Positions 1,615 to 57,637 of a stretch of DNA of 64,000 nucleotides are shown one piece after another. Made by a program: the position numbers and the translations under genes. The DNA comes from Candidatus Gottesmanbacteria bacterium (lineage in GTDB: Bacteria > Patescibacteriota > Microgenomatia > UBA10105 > UBA927). The stretch spans positions 94,209 through 158,208 of the forward strand of contig CAWEKC010000001.1 of NCBI GenBank assembly GCA_963809665.1, written 5' to 3'. A model generated the notes under the pieces. That model was not told where the DNA came from, did not search any database, and saw nothing but the letters and a program-made list of their open reading frames with translations. How positions within the stretch are numbered: the stretch's first letter is position 1; each line of letters starts with the position of its first letter.

Positions 1615-2057
1615 TTCAGCATGAGGAGAGAAAAGTTGAGGAAACTGGCAAATGAAACCCACGCCAGATACGGAATTAACAGATACGCGGCAGTTTTATC
1701 TACCCGGTAAAACATTTTAATGATGGCAACAATGAGCACCCACAATACAATTATCATAACCATGCCGCCCGAAATAGAGCGGAACCCGAAAAAAACAATT
1801 GACCAGCCGGCATTGACGGCAAGATGAAGCATAAATATTTTCAGTTCCCCTTTCTTCTGCCACACCAGATACATCGCGATACCCATGAGAACGTAGAGCG
1901 TTGTCCAAACGGGCCCGAAAAGCCAGTTCGGCGGGCTGAAAGAAGGCTTTACGAGCGTTGCGTACCACGTCGGGATCGAAGGGAATGTAGCCAGAGACCC
2001 GATAATTCCCGCCACCAAGCAGACCCCTATCGAAATCAGCAGATTCCGTAGTTTCAT
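1611..2057 (-). CDS. tspO: TspO/MBR family tryptophan-rich sensory protein
   Basis: 148 aa, five predicted TM helices. Motifs WYATLVKPSFSPPNWLFGPVWTTLYVLMGIAMYLVW and LAWVSFASFLN are typical of TspO. Confidence 0.85.
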   Translation of the reverse strand: MKLRNLLISIGVCLVAGIIGSLATFPSIPTWYATLVKPSFSPPNWLFGPVWTTLYVLMGIAMYLVWQKKGELKIFMLHLAVNAGWSIVFFGFRSISGGMVMIIVLWVLIVAIIKMFYRVDKTAAYLLIPYLAWVSFASFLNFSLLMLN

Positions 2058-2324
2058 TTATTTTTTAGCGAGTGTGTTCCAGATAATTCCGGATACCCAA
2101 CCGACAATGTACCCCGCGACAAACGTGATGACCCAGAGCATGATTGCTTTCCCCCAGTCAAATGACTGTACTACAAAAGGATTGCTCACAAAATGCAGAG
2201 AAAAGATAAAATCCAGATACCAATTGGCCACACCAAGCAAAACGGCGAGCGACCACACAATGTGCATGATGGAAACGGTAGCCCCGATTATGAGGCCGAC
2301 ATCATTCGGATGAATCTTTTTCAT
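2058..2324 (-). CDS. small membrane protein (about 88 aa, 2-3 TM)
   Basis: Frame of the 118-aa track ORF. Start placed at internal ATG (MKKIHPNDVGL...) because AAAGGGG lies 7 nt upstream. Hydrophobic segments IIGATVSIMHIVWSLAVLLGV and IMLWVITFVAGYIVGWVSGII. Confidence 0.4.
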   Translation of the reverse strand: MKKIHPNDVGLIIGATVSIMHIVWSLAVLLGVANWYLDFIFSLHFVSNPFVVQSFDWGKAIMLWVITFVAGYIVGWVSGIIWNTLAKK

Positions 2325-2397
2325 ATACATACCCCTTTCATATATAGTATGACGCAGGTCTTTCTTGTTTTGCAACAAGCATGATACAATTTGTTTC

Positions 2398-3297
2398 ATG
2401 CACAAAAGACGCATTCTTCTCTTAACGGCGTGCCTGATGGTTGCTACGGGTGTCTATGTGTTTACGAAGGAAAAAAACCAACCATCCGTATCCCCGCTTC
2501 AGAACGACGCATATACGAAGGTGCTGGGCATTTTCTCGGTCCGGAAAAATCCGGACGATCTCAAAAATAAAATCCAATCCACAATCGGCAATTCGTTCAA
2601 GAATTATTCCGTGTATGTTGTCGACTACCGAAGTAACCTTACCATGGGCGTTAACGAGTCGGAAATGTTTACCGGCGCGTCAATTAACAAACTCGCGATC
2701 ATGGCCGCCCTCTACAACGAAGCGCAAAACGGTTCCGTGAACTTTGACCGTGTGATTACGCTGCAGCCTGAGGATATTCAGGATTACGGGAGCGGGAGCA
2801 TCCGCTATGATCCGCCGGGATCAACGTACACGGTAAAAACCCTGGTGCGCCTCATGATGCAGAAAAGCGACAATACTGCGGCGTTTTTACTGGGTAACTA
2901 CGTCGTGGGATTGCCCAAAGTCCAGTCCCTCATCAACAGCTGGGGGTTAACACAAACGGATATGGCGAACAACAAAACTTCCAATAAAGATATGGAACTC
3001 TTGCTTCGCAAAATTTACGGCAATAATGTCGCCAACCCGTCCCTCACCGCCGAAATGCTCGGATTTCTCAAGGACAGCGATTATGAAAACCGGATACCCG
3101 GGGATCTACCGGACGATGTGACGGTCTATCATAAAACAGGTGATGGCACGACCGGAGAGATTCATGATGTGGGTATTATTATCCAGGGTAATACAGCGTA
3201 TTACATCGGAATTCTGACCAGTGATGTGGGAGATGCTACTGCGGCGGCACAACTGGAAGCAAAAATTTCCAAAATCGTTTACGACTTTATGAGGTGA
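2398..3297 (+). CDS. class A beta-lactamase-like serine hydrolase (penicillin-binding fold)
   Basis: SxxK ([10 protein letters not shown]), SDN (QKSDNTAA) and KTG (HKTGDGTTG) motifs in canonical order, N-terminal signal anchor. The track ORF begins at TTG 2365; ATG 2398 is the alternative start. Confidence 0.7.
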
Positions 3298-5654
3298 CGG
3301 GTGAGTGCAAGCTTCAGGACTTCGTCCATGTGCTCAACAAAGTGAAATTTCAGATCTGTCGCAACGCTTTTGGGAATATCCTCAAGGTCTTTCTTATTAT
3401 TTTTCGGTAAAATCACGGTCGCGATACGGGCCCGGTGCGCGGCAATCACTTTTTCCTTTACTCCGCCGATCTCCAGAACCCTGCCGCGCAGCGTAATTTC
3501 ACCCGTCATGGCAACGGAACGGTGCGTCGGGATTTTAGTAAGTGCTGAAACGATTGCCGTTGCAATTGCTGCCCCGGCCGACGGGCCGTCTTTCGGCACT
3601 GCCCCTTCCGGAACATGGACATGGACATCGATTTTCTGGAAAAACTTCTCCGGCAGCCCCAAAAGTTTCCACCTCGACCGGACATAGGACATTGCCGCCT
3701 GACCGGATTCTTTCATCACGTCTCCCAGTTGTCCTGTTAGCGTCAGGTTACCGCGGCCCGGCATAAGTGCAACTTCGATAAACAAAATATCACCGCCTGC
3801 TTCTGTCCATGCGAGCCCTGTCGACATGCCGATCTCATCCTTTTTCTCGGCGAGCATTGATGTAAACTTCGTAGGCCCGAGGTATTCATGGAGTACGTTG
3901 GGCGTTATCGTAAACATAGGCCGCCTGCCCTTAACATCTGCAATCTTTTTGGCGACTTTACGGAAAATAGTGGCCACTTCACGCTCCAGATTCCGGACTC
4001 CTGCCTCACGCGTATACCGGCGGATGATTTCAAGCATCGCTCCATCCGTTAGCTTCACGCTTTTAGCAGGCACGCCGTGGATTTCCCGTTCTTTCTCAAA
4101 AAGGAAGTCCTTCCCGATATGAAATTTTTCATCCTCGGTATATCCGGGGAAATGAATAACCTCAAGGCGATCCCGCAAAGCGGGAGGAATGGTGTCCAGT
4201 ACATTGCAGGTCGTGATGAAAAAGACGTCGGACAAATCAAAAGGCACTTCCAGGTAATGGTCGGAGAACAAATAGTTTTGTTCGGGATCAAGCGCTTCAA
4301 GAAGGGCCGCAGACGGATCGCCGCGGAAGTCAGTGCCTACTTTATCTATTTCATCCAGCATAAAAACCGGATTTTTCGTGCCGGCCTGCTTAATACCCTG
4401 GATAATACGGCCCGGGAGCGCTCCGACGTAGGTTCTACGATGACCCCGAATTTCCGCCTCATCCCGTATGCCGCCGAGGGACATCTTGACAAATTTACGG
4501 CCTAATGAGCGGGCAATGGATTTGCCGATGGATGTTTTTCCGACTCCGGGCGGACCCACAAAACACAGGATGGTCGGGGCAGATTTAGATTTATGTACGG
4601 CAGTTTCTTTTACAACCTTTTCACTCCGGAGTTTCATGACCGCCAGATATTCAAGAATCCGTTCTTTGATTTTCTTAAGCCCGTAATGATCATGGTTCAA
4701 CACGCGCTCGGCATCCGCAATGATGACGTTGTTCGGGCTGGCAACCGCCCAGGGAAGTTCAACAAGCCAGTCAAGATACGCGCGCACATACGAGGATTCC
4801 GGATTATACTGTGACATCTGGATGAGTCTCGCCAGTTCTTTCTCCGCTTTGGCGCGTACGTCCGCAGGCATACCTGCCTTTTTAATTTTATCTGCAAGCT
4901 CCTTGTATTCCTTGTTCCCGTCATCTTCGCCGAGTTCTTTTTCAATTGTCTTCATGCGTTCCCTGAGTACCTGTTCACGGACGTTTTTATCGAATTTCTC
5001 CTGCGTTTTATTGGCAATTTTCTTTTCCAGCTCGAGAATTTTCACTTCGCGTGATAAATAGGTAATTTCTTTTTCCAGACGTTTCTTGATGGAAACCAGT
5101 TCCAAAAGCTCCTGCCGCTCATCGGGTTTGATATCAAGGACTCCCGCGACCTGGTGGGACAATACCTGCGGAGAAACCCCGGACATGATGTTCATGAAGG
5201 TGAGAAAATCCATGGTCTTCCCGAGTTTTACGGCCTGACGCAGTTCATTGGTAAGCGTGTTAAACAGCGCTTTGGTTTCTTCATCTTCCTCGATGGTATC
5301 GGTGAGCTTTATGGCCCGCGCAACAAAGAACGGCTCCACCGCTTCGTACGAAAGAATTTCAACTTTGGATACGCCCCGTACCAGTGCGTTGATCTCCCCT
5401 TCGTTTTTCATCATCTGGACAATCTCCCCGACGGTGGCAATGTTGTAAAGGTCCGACGGTGTGGGATCATTAATATTGGGATTCCGCTGCATGACGAGGA
5501 TTACGCGTTTACCGGATGTCTGACCCGCTTCTATGGCGGACACACTACGCTGCCTGCCGAAGGTTAAAATCATTTCGGTACCGGGGAATACTATGCCGTC
5601 TCTTATGGGAACCACCGGCAATACTATTTCTGATGGATTTAATATTTCATCCAT
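3279..5654 (-). CDS. lon: ATP-dependent Lon protease
   Basis: 791 aa. LON N-domain ([13 protein letters not shown]), Walker [10 protein letters not shown], catalytic serine motif [20 protein letters not shown]. Confidence 0.95.
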
Positions 5655-29004: not shown

Positions 29005-29078
29005 TGCGGGATCGTATAATGGTAGTACGCATCCCTCTGGAGGATGTTATCTTGGTTCGAATCCAAGTCCCGCAGCCA
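29005..29078 (+). tRNA. tRNA-Gln (anticodon CTG)
   Basis: 74 nt with encoded CCA. Acceptor TGCGGGA/TCCCGCA (U1-A72, discriminator G73, as in bacterial tRNA-Gln). D-stem CGTA/TACG, anticodon stem CATCC/GGATG with loop CTCTGGA (U33, anticodon CUG), T-arm CTTGG-TTCGAAT-CCAAG. Confidence 0.85.
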
Positions 29079-44655: not shown

Positions 44656-45834
44656 TTATTGGTACGAAATCGGTGTACCAGTAGGAAGCATCTCAATCCA
44701 AATTTGACCGCGATTAAAGCTTACTTCTTTTCCGGTCGTATCAAAGAATTGAGTACGGGCCGTACGGGTAGGTTTCTTCCAGGTAACTTTAATCGTTTTC
44801 CCGTCCTGATACAGAATGCCTGTTCCTGTGCCGATATTAGCATATAACAGATGCAAATGCTCATCGACCGGCCCCGTTTCAGTCGCAAACAATATAACGA
44901 TGTCTTTTGCCGTCAGCTGTTCTTTTGTTTCCAAATCCGTTTGCGCGGCGCCTCCGTTAAACCGCTTGTAACTATTGGATGCAGGATCATACACCCACTT
45001 TACAGCATAATCCGAATACCCTTTCCAGGCGGTAAATGATGCGCTGAATGATGCCCCTCGCTCCGAAGCGGGAGCATCGTCCTTGAACTTCCACGGGACG
45101 AAATTTTTATCCCATGAGACACCGCTTGCATCTACATTGGTCCATCCGCGCTGGGCAGCGAGAGTGTACAGTTTATCCGATACACACACCATAGTGTGTT
45201 CGGTGGACACCGGATGGTCAAGCCGATCGGGATTCCTGTAGCATGTGGGAAACGAAATACCGAACTGGTCCATATCTTTAATGTTATACTGGTCAATCTG
45301 GCACAGAGCTTTGGCGCGCTCATCCACCGTCGGATCACTGCATACGCCCGCTCCACCTACGTGGTTATATAAAGCGTCATATTCCAACACCCAGGGTAAA
45401 TAGTATGTCCTGGCGCTCCGCACGGGCGCTAAATTCACGTTTCCGGCAGCAATACCGCAATAAAATACACCCATAAACCGCGTTATGCCGCCTTCCGCCA
45501 CTGCCTCATAAACGACATCTGCCAGCGACAATCCTGATTGCGGCCGTGCTTCAGCATGGTTTTCGATCATGACCGCAAGCGGGCGTCTCTTTTGCCAGAC
45601 TGCTTCTTCCTGTTTCGTATATAGTTTGCCGTTTAACGGACATGGTTGAGTCCGCGGGATTGAAGGATCTATATTAAAATGTTGCTGGACTCCGCCGGGA
45701 GTCGCGGTCGTAGTAACAGCAGCCCCACCGGAGGTTTTCCCGATATACGTAAACGCTCCGTACGATAACCCGCTGGCAATTAAATAAACCGCAAGCCCGA
45801 TAAATCCTGTAATCAAAAACTGTTGTTTATTCAT
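44656..45834 (-). CDS. DUF3048 (YerB-like) lipoprotein/secreted protein
   Basis: Signal anchor. RPLAVMIENHAEARPQSGLSLADVVYEAVAEGGITRFMGVF matches the DUF3048 N-domain signature. Confidence 0.6.
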   Translation of the reverse strand: MNKQQFLITGFIGLAVYLIASGLSYGAFTYIGKTSGGAAVTTTATPGGVQQHFNIDPSIPRTQPCPLNGKLYTKQEEAVWQKRRPLAVMIENHAEARPQSGLSLADVVYEAVAEGGITRFMGVFYCGIAAGNVNLAPVRSARTYYLPWVLEYDALYNHVGGAGVCSDPTVDERAKALCQIDQYNIKDMDQFGISFPTCYRNPDRLDHPVSTEHTMVCVSDKLYTLAAQRGWTNVDASGVSWDKNFVPWKFKDDAPASERGASFSASFTAWKGYSDYAVKWVYDPASNSYKRFNGGAAQTDLETKEQLTAKDIVILFATETGPVDEHLHLLYANIGTGTGILYQDGKTIKVTWKKPTRTARTQFFDTTGKEVSFNRGQIWIEMLPTGTPISYQ

Positions 45835-45845
45835 ATATCTATCCT

Positions 45846-46316
45846 TTAAAACGGTTTTGCTTTTTGTATAGCTGTCTGTTCTTCTTTGGACAAAACAAGT
45901 TCTTTTCCTTTTCCTGCTCTCACTTCTTTAATATACCACCGATTACCGGTCCTGGCATAGAGTGACGTCATTACCAGTCCGTTATCGTGCCCGTCTAAAA
46001 GTGAAAGCGTAAAACTCTGGCTTCCCCCCGTATCCGAAAATGGATTAAACCGTACCAGTCCGACCCGTTGAATATGCAGCCTCCCGTCCTTACGGATCTC
46101 ATCCAATACTTTGTACAAATCTTTTGTCTGGCTTTGCAGGCCTTTCTGCGTCACAAGCATTACTTCTAAAACATCTTTTAATCCGGTTTTATTCGTGGCC
46201 CCCGTGAGCGTGTTGTAATGCCGCACCATCCGGAGCACAATGACCGAAAGACCCACCACCCACGCAATTAACACAAAAAAAATAACCCCCGAAACAATAT
46301 CTAAAGTGAACACCAT
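45846..46316 (-). CDS. DUF4446 family protein
   Basis: N-terminal TM. VGLVRFNPFSDTGGSQSFTLSLLDGHDNGLVMTSLYARTGNRWYIKEV...LSKEEQTAI matches the DUF4446 core. Confidence 0.55.
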   Translation of the reverse strand: MVFTLDIVSGVIFFVLIAWVVGLSVIVLRMVRHYNTLTGATNKTGLKDVLEVMLVTQKGLQSQTKDLYKVLDEIRKDGRLHIQRVGLVRFNPFSDTGGSQSFTLSLLDGHDNGLVMTSLYARTGNRWYIKEVRAGKGKELVLSKEEQTAIQKAKPF

Positions 46317-46421
46317 TGGTATTCATTATACTACGATTCTTACCGCTTTTATGTCAATAAGATTCCTTAAGAGTTGACAAGTTAGCCTCAGGCATGCTAC
46401 GCTCTCCGCACGAGGCTAGGT

Positions 46422-46700
46422 ATGCCTAAAAAATCAAAAAAAGAAAAAATCCTTGCAGACCTCCGGCGCAGGGTCCATACGGAGCAATCTCTCACGACCC
46501 GGATTCCCACTCTCGTGAAAGAAGACGAAGATCCTGTATTTAGTTTCCGGGTAAAAAAGGAAGTCATAACGCCCTTGCATATACCACCGCTACAGCAGCC
46601 ATCAGAACTCACTGCCATCAAACGGGACTTATACAAAACTTTCATTCTCGCAGCTATGGCAATTGCAGCAGAAGTCATAATTTATTGGTTCAGACGATGA
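46422..46700 (+). CDS. hypothetical small protein with C-terminal TM helix (92 aa)
   Basis: Lys-rich N-terminus, C-terminal KTFILAAMAIAAEVIIYWF. Possible TTGACA-18nt-TACGCT upstream at about 46374-46403. Confidence 0.35.
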   Translation: MPKKSKKEKILADLRRRVHTEQSLTTRIPTLVKEDEDPVFSFRVKKEVITPLHIPPLQQPSELTAIKRDLYKTFILAAMAIAAEVIIYWFRR

Positions 46701-46720
46701 GAGGAGGTGAATAACGAATA

Positions 46721-46863
46721 TGGCAACAATGTATTGTGTAAAATGCCGCGCAAAGCGCGACGATCCTAAAGCCGTCAAAGTAACGATGAAAAACGGCAAA
46801 CCCGCAATGAAAGGCAAATGCCCGGTTTGCGGCACCGGAATGTATAAAATCGGCGCAGCGTAA
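46721..46863 (+). CDS. zinc-ribbon micro-protein (47 aa, CxxC...CxxC)
   Basis: MATMYCVKCRAKRDDPKAVKVTMKNGKPAMKGKCPVCGTGMYKIGAA. Perfect SD GAGGAGGTG at 46702-46710, 10 nt upstream of the ATG. Followed at once by a canonical terminator. Below the ORF-track length cutoff. Confidence 0.65.
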
Positions 46864-46890
46864 GTTTTTTGCAAAGAATTTTAACTGTCT

Positions 46891-46920
46891 CCCCGCCCTT
46901 CGCGAAGGGCGGGGTTTTAT
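46891..46920 (+). terminator. rho-independent terminator
   Basis: Perfect 12-bp palindrome CCCCGCCCTTCG/CGAAGGGCGGGG followed by TTTTAT. Confidence 0.8.
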
Positions 46921-46928
46921 GGTATACT
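46920..46928 (+). promoter_or_regulatory. extended -10 promoter (TGgTATACT) for rnpB
   Basis: TG at 46920-46921, TATACT at 46923-46928, about 7 nt before the predicted 5' end of the RNase P RNA. Confidence 0.4.
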
Positions 46929-46932
46929 TATA

Positions 46933-47289
46933 GGGTACCTTGGAATCCGAATTCTCGCTCCGCTTCATCTTTTTTAGTTGATTGCGGAGAGGAAAGTCCA
47001 GACAGCAGAATGCAGGGGATCCCGCGTAAGCGGGATGCGGTGACGCCAGGTGTCCCGGCATCGAAAGATGCCGTGAACGATTCCTGAACTGACAGGATGA
47101 GAGAGTCGCAGAGACGATCATTTCCCTGTAGCCTGACGGCTATGGGAGATGGGTGAAACGTGACAATCCCACCCGCTGCAACCGACGACCGGTCCGTTAT
47201 TACCACGCATTCGGGAGGACCAAAGTGTGCGGGCATCAGAGAAATGAGGATATAAAAACAGAATCTGGCTTATGAGATTCCCGGGTACA
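46933..47289 (+). ncRNA. rnpB: RNase P RNA (ribozyme component of RNase P), divergent
   Basis: P4 strands GAGGAAAGUCCAGAC (about 46987) and ACAGAAUCUGGCUUA (about 47259). P1 pairing GGTACC..GGAATC with GATTCC..GGTAC at the ends. GNRA hairpins AUCCCGCGUAAGCGGGAU and GGCAUCGAAAGAUGCC. GCCUGACGGCUAUGG and GGGUGAAACGUG...CCCACC elements. Flanked by terminators on both sides. No credible ORF. Confidence 0.65.
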
Positions 47290-47295
47290 CAAAAG

Positions 47296-47322
47296 ATCCC
47301 TCTTATTTAGAGGGGTTTTTTG
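47296..47322. terminator. bidirectional rho-independent terminator (rnpB on +, AI-2E transporter gene on -)
   Basis: Hairpin CCCTCT-TATTT-AGAGGG followed by G and TTTTTT on the + strand. On the - strand the same hairpin follows the transporter stop codon. Confidence 0.65.
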
Positions 47323-48274
47323 TGAAATATCGTATCAATACCTGAATGACAAGTACCACCGGCACTGCAAGTACCGCACCTGTTACCCCTGCTAGTCTGC
47401 CTCCGATCAGCAGCGCGAGTATGGAAACAAGCGGGGAAAGTCCGACACTCTGCTTCATGATGATCGGTACGACGATATTCCCCTCCACCTGATGGACGAT
47501 GACATACAAAGCTACGACACTGAGTGCTACTATCGGCGACATTGAAAGCCCGATCAAAACAGCCGGGATTGCCGAAATAATAGGACCGATATTCGGAATG
47601 ATTTCCAGAAGACCGGACACGATAGCGATGGGCAGCGCAAAATCCACACGGAGAATTGTAAGGCCGATGTACACAAACAGCCCGATCGAAATCATAAGGA
47701 ATAATTCACCCCGTACCCAAGCGCCCAGGCGGTGTTCTATCGCACGGAGTATAATAATGGCGCGCTCTGCAACAGATTCACCGAATGTATCAGCTATAAT
47801 TTTCTTCGTCCGGCCCCGCTCCAATAGGAAGTAAAATGTGAAAAAAAGCACGGTAAAGGTCGTAACAATATTAGAAAAAAGGCCGACCGTAAACTTCACC
47901 ACGTTTTCTCCGATGGGCGCCAATTGCTGAACAATAGTCGATATATTAACATTCCAGTACGGTAATACTTTTGCAATCACTGCCGGAAGCTCTTCCACTA
48001 ATTTTGTCGTCTGCGTCACAAGAGTGGGTATGGAGCTCACGATCAAAAACCCGAACATCCCGAATATCACGGCATATACGATAATTATCGCAAGCAGCCG
48101 GGGAATCCGTACCTTCTCCAGAAGAACAACCAGCGGATAAATGGCGGTCATCAGAAGAAACGCAATAAACAAAAGAAAGAGAATGTCCCTGATCTGGAGA
48201 ATAAGCCATATCCCCGCAAGGATCGCCAGGGTCGCCAGGACGGTTCGCATGGATATTTCAATCTTCCGGAACAT
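47303..48274 (-). CDS. AI-2E family transporter (UPF0118/PerM-like)
   Basis: 323 aa, 8 TM, family-typical layout with conserved central loop (RAIEHRLGAWVRGELFLMISIG). Confidence 0.7.
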   Translation of the reverse strand: MFRKIEISMRTVLATLAILAGIWLILQIRDILFLLFIAFLLMTAIYPLVVLLEKVRIPRLLAIIIVYAVIFGMFGFLIVSSIPTLVTQTTKLVEELPAVIAKVLPYWNVNISTIVQQLAPIGENVVKFTVGLFSNIVTTFTVLFFTFYFLLERGRTKKIIADTFGESVAERAIIILRAIEHRLGAWVRGELFLMISIGLFVYIGLTILRVDFALPIAIVSGLLEIIPNIGPIISAIPAVLIGLSMSPIVALSVVALYVIVHQVEGNIVVPIIMKQSVGLSPLVSILALLIGGRLAGVTGAVLAVPVVLVIQVLIRYFTKNPSK

Positions 48275-57560: not shown

Positions 57561-57637
57561 TGGTCGGGGTGGGCAGACTTGAACTGCCAACCGCTCGCAC
57601 CCCATGCGAGTGCGCTAGCCAATTGCGCCACACCCCG
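57561..57637 (-). tRNA. tRNA-Pro (anticodon GGG)
   Basis: Reverse complement is CGGGGTG-TG-GCGC-AATTGGCTA-GCGC-A-CTCGC-ATGGGGT-GCGAG-CGGTT-GGCAG-TTCAAGT-CTGCC-CACCCCG-A-CCA. C1-G72, G37 and A73 are typical of tRNA-Pro. 77 nt with encoded CCA. Confidence 0.85.

Follow-up and report, generated by a model that had tools for sequence, protein, structure and literature searches.

A window of 64 kb from a Microgenomates (Gottesmanbacteria-like) genome of the Candidate Phyla Radiation (CPR) very probably encodes, at positions 46935-47288, a divergent bacterial RNase P RNA (rnpB), which would form its own transcription unit beside an unrelated unit carrying a small zinc-ribbon gene of the DUF5679 family. 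All coordinates are positions in the whole 64-kb window, and the region examined was the plus strand from 46400 to 47330. RNase P, composed of this RNA and the RnpA protein, removes the 5′ leader from pre-tRNAs. An earlier inspection of the letters, referred to below as the sequence-only reading, had proposed an RNase P RNA of about 357 nt at this place; the RNA is indeed present, but its length is 354 nt. Both the divergent rnpB and the DUF5679 gene are ordinary for this lineage, and the novelty first attached to them was overstated: such CPR RNAs are already described in PMC8172020, and DUF5679 is a curated Pfam family. Current understanding is not overturned by these results, which amount to a neat structural account of a gap in annotation. 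The RNA and the elements assigned to it are as follows.

46935-47288, plus strand: predicted RNase P RNA (rnpB), 354 nt, bounded by P1 (cmscan RF00010, covariation).
46994-47002, plus strand: 5′ strand of P4, AAG-U-CCAGA, with U46997 bulged and the partner at 47264-47271 (8 pairs; P4 of the model).
47008-47013, plus strand: 5′ strand of the P6 pseudoknot, GAAUGC, with the partner GCAUUC at 47207-47212 in L17 (a type A hallmark).
47019-47046, plus strand: P8 (47019-47036, L8 GUAA) and P9 (47037-47046, L9 GUGA) (covariation).
47049-47050, plus strand: 5′ strand of P10, G47049 and G47050, with partners C47170 and C47169 (covariation of the first pair in the wider sample).
47050/47051-47078, plus strand: P10.1, pairing 47050/47051-47062 with 47067-47078, G47052 bulged, GAAA loop at 47063-47066 (RNAalifold, covariation).
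47082-47097, plus strand: P10.2, UCCUG-AACUGA-CAGGA (compensatory changes in 5/5 pairs).
47103-47168, plus strand: P11 (47103-47108/47161-47168), J11/12 CAGAGACGAU, P12 (47119-47151, loop UGAC) and J12/13 GGGUGAAAC (cmscan).
47182-47232, plus strand: P15 (47182-47184/47230-47232), P16 (47190-47195/47217-47222) and P17 (47203-47204/47213-47214) (covariation).

It was observed by cmscan with permissive filters that 46939-47288 aligns to the RF00010 model (RNaseP_bact_a) from position 1 to 367 of 367 with 62.7 bits. The match had E=7.8e-19 on the region and E=1e-16 when both strands of the whole window were searched with all 4227 families, and RF00010 outscored the other families of its clan. The permissive whole-window cmscan gave no second RNase P-like match in the window, and with the significant full-length match the check proposed along with the RNase P claim came out in its favor. 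The single sequence of the RNA gave a more stable fold than its shuffles (z = -3.8).

The comparative evidence was drawn from 80 reference-genome loci found via the micro-protein (L001-L080, mostly named Gottesman-, Levyi-, Roizman- and Amesbacteria), the closest relative being L003, a Gottesmanbacteria chromosome. Homologs of rnpB, sought within 4 kb of DUF5679 by regex search and an nhmmer profile, were found in 25 of the 80 loci. Twenty full-length RNase P RNAs formed alignment A2, which carried an explicit structure including the P4 and P6 pseudoknots, and comparison relied on the nhmmer profile, MAFFT, RNAalifold and explicit pair counting. A wider sample of 120 loci came from a metagenome scan with the P4 3′ strand of the clade.

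In the 20 homologs, 88.0% of the cells of 104 pairs were paired, versus 34-43% when the 3′ partners were slid by 1-3 columns. Compensatory changes, altering both sides of a pair, were found in 61 pairs versus 38.1 ± 2.8 in shuffles, none of 500 shuffles reaching 61, and the covariation score of the 20-sequence alignment was 0.381 versus 0.153. From the alignment alone, RNAalifold recovered P3, P4, P8, P9, P10.1, P10.2, P11, P12, P15 and P16. Covariation supports P1-P3, P6-P9, P11, P12, P16 and P17. The helices P4, P5, P10 and P15 are invariant in this alignment, which is uninformative on their pairing, yet expected of the catalytic core.

The catalytic domain is predicted to be of type A, with P4, the P6 pseudoknot and P15-P17, and all five conserved regions (CR-I to CR-V) are present. 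The sequence-only reading had recognized the end-pairing of P1, the two P4 strands and GNRA hairpins, and all of these were recovered: P1 joins 46935-46947 to 47276-47288 in 12/13 pairs, the P4 strand motifs AGGAAAGTCC and ACAGAATCTGGCTTA lie at 46990-46999 and 47258-47272, and the GNRA loops are L8 (GUAA), L9 (GUGA) and L10.1 (GAAA). CR-I GAGGAAAGUCC and CR-V ACAGAAUCUGGCUUA make the 8 P4 pairs, a pseudoknot of the catalytic core that is invariant in 20/20 sequences, while CR-II CAGAGAC, CR-III GGGUGAAAC and CR-IV AGAGAAAUGA are aligned by the model and nearly invariant. A G/A-rich stretch inside the 13-position P1 helix holds AGGAAAGUCC and ACAGAAUCUGGCUUA. For P6, compensatory changes were counted in 3/6 pairs among the 20 homologs, and GAAUGC/GCAUUC covaries to GAAUAU/AUAUUC, GAAUGU/ACAUUC and GGUAGC/GCUACC, the last in L007, L067 and L050. 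Compensatory changes were also found in 5/7 pairs of P8, 3/3 of P9, 4/6 of P16 and 2/2 of P17, P15 being invariant. L8 is a GNRA loop in 20/20 sequences, and L9 reads GYAA in 12/20. Two type A elements are missing: P18 is deleted from the model alignment and absent in 19/20 homologs, and GGU, the partner of the tRNA 3′-CCA, was sought in the L15 3′ strand and is absent in 20/20 sequences, the 3′ side of L15 reading AAAGUGUG in the window RNA.

Lineage-specific expansions occupy columns 352-404, 426-476 and 491-524 of alignment A2. A P19-like hairpin stands between P2 3′ and P4 3′ in L032, L025, L047 and L004, the P16/P17 region is extended in L019, L059, L037 and L031, and at the P18 site L022 (256-665, minus strand) carries ~50 nt of unrelated inserted sequence.

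The specificity domain (S-domain) keeps P11 and P12, with compensatory changes in 2 and 7 pairs, respectively. P13/P14 is absent, 1 nt standing where the model has 43 nt, and 12 nt separate J12/13 from the 3′ strand of P10. An insert of ~50 nt between P9 and P11 folds as two hairpins, designated P10.1 and P10.2. Compensatory changes affect 10/12 pairs of P10.1, and RNAalifold gives the same helix; a first register with a bulged A was rejected, since the pair of columns 164-188 covaries and favors the RNAalifold register with the bulged G47052. The P10.2 loop presents the motif GAANNRAC (G47086-C47093, closing G-C pair included), and a hairpin with this loop was found in 34/44 insert-bearing relatives and in 0/29 insert-less ones. 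A canonical 11-nt GAAA receptor in P12 was also considered and dropped: UAUGG is present, but the opposite strand misfits and the motif is unconserved.

The two hairpins are assigned to the interval from P10 to P11, where types B and C have P10.1, because the first nucleotide after P9 covaries with the 3′ strand. The first pair of P10 changes from G-C to A-U in the insert-bearing L104, L129, L179, L183 and L186 and also in the insert-less L007, L050, L119 and L145, the sequence passing from GGUG...AAUCCC to AGUG...AAUCCU, and L092 has a single G.U. It is unlikely that the hairpins instead represent an expanded P9 or P7-P10 junction, or a displaced P13/P14, in which case the RNA would be a rearranged type A. 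The cmscan alignment does put the insert before the P10 of the model, the 20-sequence alignment shows no variation in the P10 nucleotides, and a GAGAGAG repeat 5′ of P11 leaves the register ambiguous. However, the cmscan choice leaves U47098 facing C47170, a mismatch in all sequences, and the covariation, seen in at least five insert-bearing and in four insert-less relatives besides the G.U of L092, implies that P10 closes before the hairpins. Moreover, L007 (1967-2286, minus strand), which is devoid of the P10.1 insert, has two separate hairpins at the genuine position of P13/P14. Two details sit less well with the placement between P10 and P11: in L180 the covarying P10 pair is replaced by an A.C mismatch, and G47050 fits either P10 or the base of P10.1, both candidate pairs being invariant.

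The S-domain designs of the relatives were sorted by a rough, distance-based classification that parsed 60 of 91 RNAs and left 31 unparsed. Among the 60, the arrangement of the window RNA (insert and P12, no P13/P14) was found in 26, P12 with neither insert nor P13/P14 in 11, the insert without P12 in 8, the classical P13/P14 type in 6, and the insert together with P13/P14 in 4. Relatives that share the rnpB-AI-2E-MiaA locus differ strongly in this domain: besides L007 with its P13/P14-site hairpins, L067 (5902-6195, minus strand) has a short P12 only, and L050 (5236-5510, minus strand) has wholly lost P12. The metagenomic L092, L104, L105, L158, L180, L183 and L186 constitute a P12-less group in which P10.1 and P10.2 are kept, with a large conserved P10.1 loop, UUUAYCCACAUGCGG. 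The P10.1/P10.2 module persists, then, even in P12-less relatives, and its widespread occurrence is the one modestly new detail. Tentatively, and with the balance tipping somewhat the other way, the module may define a widespread and as yet unclassified CPR structural class of bacterial RNase P RNA, in which it may consist of the GAANNRAC loop of the second hairpin and, in the clade of the window, of a GAAA-capped P10.1. If true, this would be the third independent replacement of P13/P14 by P10.1-site helices, after types B and C. No paper describing the module in CPR was found in the accessible literature, the searchable literature being incomplete. These RNAs offer a natural series with one conserved catalytic core and four S-domain designs (P13/P14-type, P10.1/P10.2-type, minimal and P12-less), which could be used to probe the minimum S-domain need and how tRNA is held without CCA pairing.

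The earlier statement that the RNA matches neither type A nor type B cleanly was borne out: P6 and P15-P17 are present, P13/P14, P18 and GGU are missing, and two hairpins occupy the P10.1 site. With type A (RF00010; E. coli M1 RNA) the window RNA shares CR-I to CR-V, P1-P12, the P6 pseudoknot, P15-P17 and the GNRA L8, but it lacks P13/P14, P18 and the L15 GGU and has the extra insert of ~50 nt between P10 and P11. The S-domain of type B (Bacillus subtilis; RF00011) likewise uses a P10.1 helix instead of P13/P14. In its catalytic domain, however, type B has P5.1, P15.1 and P15.2 but not P6, P16 or P17, the reverse of what the window RNA shows; the type B test failed, P6, P16 and P17 being present with covariation and only 8 nt lying between P5 and P7. 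The closest textbook layout is type C of the Chloroflexi (Thermomicrobium roseum, Sphaerobacter thermophilus), which was compared through its published descriptions. Type C is defined by the absence of P13/P14, the presence of P10.1 and the retention of P6/P16/P17 (PMC2858038 Table 3; PMC7191817), and the window RNA has this combination, with no P13/P14, a P10.1-site helix and P6/P16/P17 retained. On the other hand, type C has P15.1 (P15.2 in PMC7191817) and P18, whereas the window RNA has neither, the interval between P15/P17 and CR-IV being 5 nt (47233-47237) and holding no helix; and it has two hairpins at the P10.1 site, against one in type C. The P10.1 likeness to type C, found in a different phylum, may reflect either convergence or shared ancestry. 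Finally, the P18-less type A RNAs of Chlorobium and the Aquificales (PMC5066622) have in common with the window RNA the absence of P18, a GYAA/GNRA L9 and tandem G-C pairs in P1; by their type A class, they are expected to keep P13/P14 and to lack the P10.1-site insert.

The window RNA is a further example of the diverged CPR RNase P RNAs already reported by Lui, Nielsen and Arkin in 2021 (PMC8172020), whose set comes from the same lineage, includes Microgenomatia and also needed manual refolding. In that study, the RF00010 thresholds had to be lowered for the RNase P RNA of 10/35 circular CPR genomes, many of the RNAs lacked P13, P14, P16, P17 or P18, two lacked P12, and the CCA-binding UGG/GGU motif was lost in 23/35 genomes. 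The window RNA keeps P12, P16 and P17, which some of those RNAs lack, and the P12-less form highlighted there matches L050, L092 and L104, not the window RNA. Neither P10.1-site helices nor the GAANNRAC hairpin are described in PMC8172020.

The locus would comprise two independent transcription units placed head to tail on the plus strand, the first consisting of a 92-amino-acid open reading frame (ORF; orf92) and the DUF5679 gene and stopping at a strong intrinsic terminator, the second consisting of rnpB driven by its own extended -10 promoter. The features outside the RNA are listed below.

46422-46700, plus strand: orf92, an ORF of 92 amino acids with a basic N-terminus and a hydrophobic C-terminus (ORF list).
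46701-46709, plus strand: Shine-Dalgarno sequence GAGGAGGTG, 10 nt before the ATG at 46720 (sequence).
46720-46863, plus strand: DUF5679 zinc-ribbon gene, 47 amino acids, with Cys6, Cys9, Cys34 and Cys37 (PF18930 match).
46891-46918, plus strand: predicted intrinsic terminator of the micro-gene operon, CCCCGCCCTT-CGCG-AAGGGCGGGG then TTTT (terminator scan).
46920-46928, plus strand: putative extended -10 element of rnpB, TGGTATACT (sequence and conservation among homologs).
47299-47321, both strands: predicted bidirectional terminator, hairpin (47299-47315) and T-tract (terminator scan).
47303-48274, minus strand: convergent AI-2E family transporter gene (Pfam PF01594, 194.8 bits).

The TGA stop of orf92 abuts the DUF5679 Shine-Dalgarno sequence, and for this reason the two genes are probably co-transcribed. 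Weak homologs of orf92 (30-67% identity) were found at the same position in ~20 of the 80 loci by tblastn, and it had no match in searches of Pfam and NCBIfam. The first terminator had been described as a 12-bp GC palindrome with a T-tract; the 24-nt perfect palindrome (46891-46914) and the T-tract stood, but the scored stem is 10 bp (8 G-C) with a 4-nt loop. The rnpB promoter is immediately preceded by an equivalent hairpin in L019, L025, L035, L044, L055 and L062, and wherever the micro-gene adjoins rnpB its terminator hairpin directly precedes the rnpB promoter. The extended -10 promoter claimed before rnpB was found as TGGTATACT, which ends 6 nt before the first P1 base. A TGnTAnAMT element stands 5-9 nt 5′ of P1 in ~20/25 homologs, whatever the upstream neighbor, L007 and L067 included; the promoters of L007, L050, L067 and L022 were read from alignment A3 and not by the automatic P1 finder. 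A consensus promoter scan made no call for rnpB, for want of a -35 element. The conserved extended -10 and the micro-gene terminator just before it indicate that rnpB would be an independent unit.

At the other end, the hairpin 47299-47315 with its T-tract is predicted to end rnpB transcription. It had been taken for a bidirectional terminator shared with the AI-2E gene, and it was in fact called on both strands and overlaps the stop codon and last codons of that gene (47303). It has 6 pairs per strand, with a T-tract that is strong on the plus strand (TTTTTTG) and weaker on the minus strand (ATCTTTTG). In total, the region presented 4 terminator-like sites versus 1.4 ± 1.1 in shuffles.

The sequence-only reading had also proposed a 47-amino-acid CxxC...CxxC gene preceded by a Shine-Dalgarno sequence, and both elements were recovered, the latter at the position listed above. 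The protein matches Pfam DUF5679 (PF18930) with 58.9 bits against a cut-off of 27 (E=5.5e-16, profile 1-40 of 40). Codon-position differences of 219/148/1683, with 1468 synonymous versus 296 non-synonymous codon changes, an ATG conserved in 78/78 loci and a length of 46-48 amino acids in 78/78 argue that the ORF is a real gene under strong purifying selection. A Shine-Dalgarno-like motif lies no more than 20 nt upstream in 56/78 homologous loci. The claim that this gene was hidden is justified for an ORF track with a length threshold, but not otherwise, as NCBI already names its homologs 'DUF5679 domain-containing protein'. There are 539 homologs at 74-94% identity, those with a source name being Patescibacteria, and C6, C9, C34 and C37, that is, both CxxC knuckles, are invariant in 34 sequences. 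AlphaFold predicts a five-β-strand zinc ribbon (pLDDT 83.7), and a Foldseek search of solved structures gave no significant match, the best being NrdR, Rpp21, Cren7 and polymerase zinc ribbons at E=0.3-1.5. The window protein is a typical single-domain member of the Pfam family, with nothing that sets it apart. DUF5679 is among the most conserved tiny CPR proteins (74-94% identity across candidate phyla) and constitutes a family without assigned function. The domain also occurs in tandem repeats in large proteins (P0121, P0122, P0134), such as the 3179-amino-acid metagenomic P0121 with 38 copies, named C2H2 Zn-finger protein by JGI, and it reaches the DPANN archaea, in the 531-amino-acid P0125 of a Woesearchaeota archaeon.

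The position of this gene beside rnpB could suggest that DUF5679 is an RNase P cofactor similar to Rpp21/Rpr2, which would stabilize an S-domain devoid of P13/P14 and would make the adjacency functional. The protein is basic and shows extreme conservation, the homologs P0018 and P0061 carry the JGI name 'RNase P subunit RPR2', and archaeal Rpp21 zinc ribbons (2ki7_B, 6k0a_G, 2zae_D, 1x0t, 2k3r) are among its top fold matches; indeed, the archaeal/eukaryal Rpp21/Rpr2 resembles DUF5679 in having a zinc ribbon of four cysteines and a similar order of strands. However, DUF5679 lacks the N-terminal helices of Rpp21, the Rpp21 matches (E=0.44-1.4, TM 0.46-0.56) were no better than those to NrdR, Cren7 and RNA polymerase zinc ribbons, and neither the Rpr2 Pfam family (PF04032) nor Rpp21 in a PDB profile search was matched at E≤10. 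There is no significant similarity in sequence or fold and no conserved linkage to rnpB. The domain belongs to a superfamily of 4110 clusters, the multi-repeat proteins and the Woesearchaeota protein included. The JGI 'RPR2' label reflects a generic zinc-ribbon resemblance to Rpp21 and is unsupported by sequence or synteny.

The arrangement of the genes in the relatives bears on the same proposal. DUF5679 lies within 4 kb of rnpB in only 25/80 loci, at a gap of ~60 nt to ~3.7 kb and with rnpB in either orientation, while 55/80 loci retain DUF5679 without rnpB nearby. According to tblastn of the window proteins, the order DUF3048(-)-DUF4446(-)-[orf92]-DUF5679(+) is found in nearly all 80 loci. 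On its side, rnpB is followed by the AI-2E gene in 22/25 rnpB-bearing loci, which are those whose stored stretch reaches far enough, at up to ~190 nt in 20/22 and at ~1.7 kb in L010 and L022; AI-2E(-) is usually accompanied by a downstream MiaA-like gene (-). Thus, DUF5679 is consistently linked to DUF4446 and DUF3048, and rnpB to AI-2E and MiaA, and a terminator and a separate promoter stand between DUF5679 and rnpB. Because no more than 25 loci bring the two syntenic blocks within 4 kb of each other, and gap and orientation vary among these, the adjacency is a lineage-specific junction of these blocks, neither an operon nor a functional unit. A cofactor role of this kind is very unlikely, and DUF4446 and DUF3048 are a better functional lead for DUF5679 than rnpB.

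Some further observations were made on these loci. In the block corresponding to window positions 44656-46863 (~1900-4141 in the loci), the micro-gene is transcribed divergently from DUF3048 and DUF4446. rnpB is co-directional with AI-2E in L007, L050 and L067 and inverted beside DUF5679 in L010 and L022, and the flanking blocks are inverted in L031 and L034; small local inversions around rnpB appear to be frequent in the clade. Many metagenome-assembled genomes with this typical Microgenomates locus (L001, L004, L007, L009 and others; CAY/CAZ accessions) are titled 'uncultured Gammaproteobacteria bacterium', apparently a placeholder title or a mistaken taxonomic assignment.

Several results weigh against a working RNase P RNA at 46935-47288. 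The score of 62.7 bits does not reach the RF00010 gathering score of 100 bits, and the whole-window cmscan at gathering thresholds reported tRNA only and no RNase P, as the earlier description of the RNA as unannotated would have it. In addition, an RnpA motif search of the window ORFs was negative, and the protein partner is assumed. It is also a misfit, discussed further below, that both tRNA genes of the window encode CCA. An alternative reading makes the RNA a decaying rnpB relic, with pre-tRNAs processed by HARP, a protein-only RNase P, or by an rnpB copy outside the window; in its favor are the sub-threshold score, the loss of P13/P14, of P18 and of the GGU that binds CCA, and an analysis that covered the window alone. 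Nevertheless, a catalytic core (P4, P5, P15, CR-I to CR-V) invariant across 20 homologs, a conserved rnpB promoter and 61 pairs kept by compensatory change, which imply selection on structure, make a relic highly improbable. The same losses are described as normal for CPR, and this rnpB form is the sole one found in circularised genomes (PMC8172020).

The low score of the divergent RNase P RNA is shared with its clade. The insert-bearing relatives L003, L013, L019, L027 and L035 score 63.7-73.7 bits on RF00010 and the insert-less ones 91-108 bits; the insert and the missing helices push the insert-bearing clade under the Rfam annotation threshold. All six insert-bearing RNAs scored, the window RNA and these five, thus lie at 62.7-73.7 bits versus the gathering score of 100. 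Since the score falls below the gathering threshold, rnpB is skipped by annotation pipelines and will therefore be reported missing from such genomes. A false absence of rnpB misleads completeness checks and claims of a 'loss of RNase P', and a clade-specific covariance model would fix the gap.

The rnpB RNA would act as a normal RNase P ribozyme with an RnpA encoded elsewhere, which is expected because the T-loop recognition module and the P4 core are intact. That module would comprise P9-P11, J11/12, P12 and J12/13, the role of P11/P12 in binding the tRNA T-loop being taken from type A and B structures (PMC1874661). P10.1 and P10.2 would take over from P13/P14 in bracing the specificity domain, a part played by P10.1 in types B and C (PMC1874661, PMC2858038). 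The missing L18-P8 contact would be replaced by GNRA contacts of L8 with P4 and of L9 with P1. These contacts are taken from PMC5066622: there, L8 docks on P4 and L9 on tandem G-C pairs of P1, and the L9-P1 contact makes up for the loss of P18 in Chlorobium and the Aquificales. The window RNA has tandem G-C pairs in P1 and a GNRA L9, which is the combination of that contact. The enzyme would not base-pair the tRNA 3′-CCA and would rely more heavily on its protein. To our knowledge, the L8-P4 contact is universal in bacteria.

A correlation between the lack of encoded CCA and the lack of GGU has been proposed for cyanobacteria and suggested for CPR. However, both tRNA genes of the window, Gln-CUG at 29005-29078 (plus strand) and Pro-GGG at 57561-57637 (minus strand), encode 3′-CCA, which does not fit a CCA-less explanation of the loss of GGU. 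Since L15 is without GGU while both genes encode CCA, CCA pairing seems to have been abandoned, not rendered superfluous, in a sample of two tRNA genes. The 80 loci, searched with ARAGORN, yielded no tRNA genes. The tRNA-Pro (57564-57637, minus strand) was missed in the whole-window cmscan, both at gathering thresholds and at E≤0.01, and scored 57.9 bits in a 200-nt search; this is an artifact of the cmscan speed filters and not a feature of the gene.

It is barely conceivable that the minus-strand ORFs at 46690-47121 and 46928-47236 (143 and 102 amino acids) are real protein genes and the RNA-like features incidental, even though the antisense strand is stop-free for 67-135 amino acids in homologs: these ORFs, already dismissed as spurious in the sequence-only reading, have no Pfam match at E≤0.1, their variation is aperiodic (282/259/236, p=0.27, and 381/377/384, p=0.92, against 219/148/1683 for DUF5679) and tracks base pairing, and indels among the RNA homologs have lengths not divisible by three. 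The strand antisense to rnpB was stop-free for 67-135 codons in 19/19 homologs examined, an openness that probably follows from the purine richness of the RNA strand and that repeatedly gives rise to spurious 'hypothetical protein' calls over rnpB.

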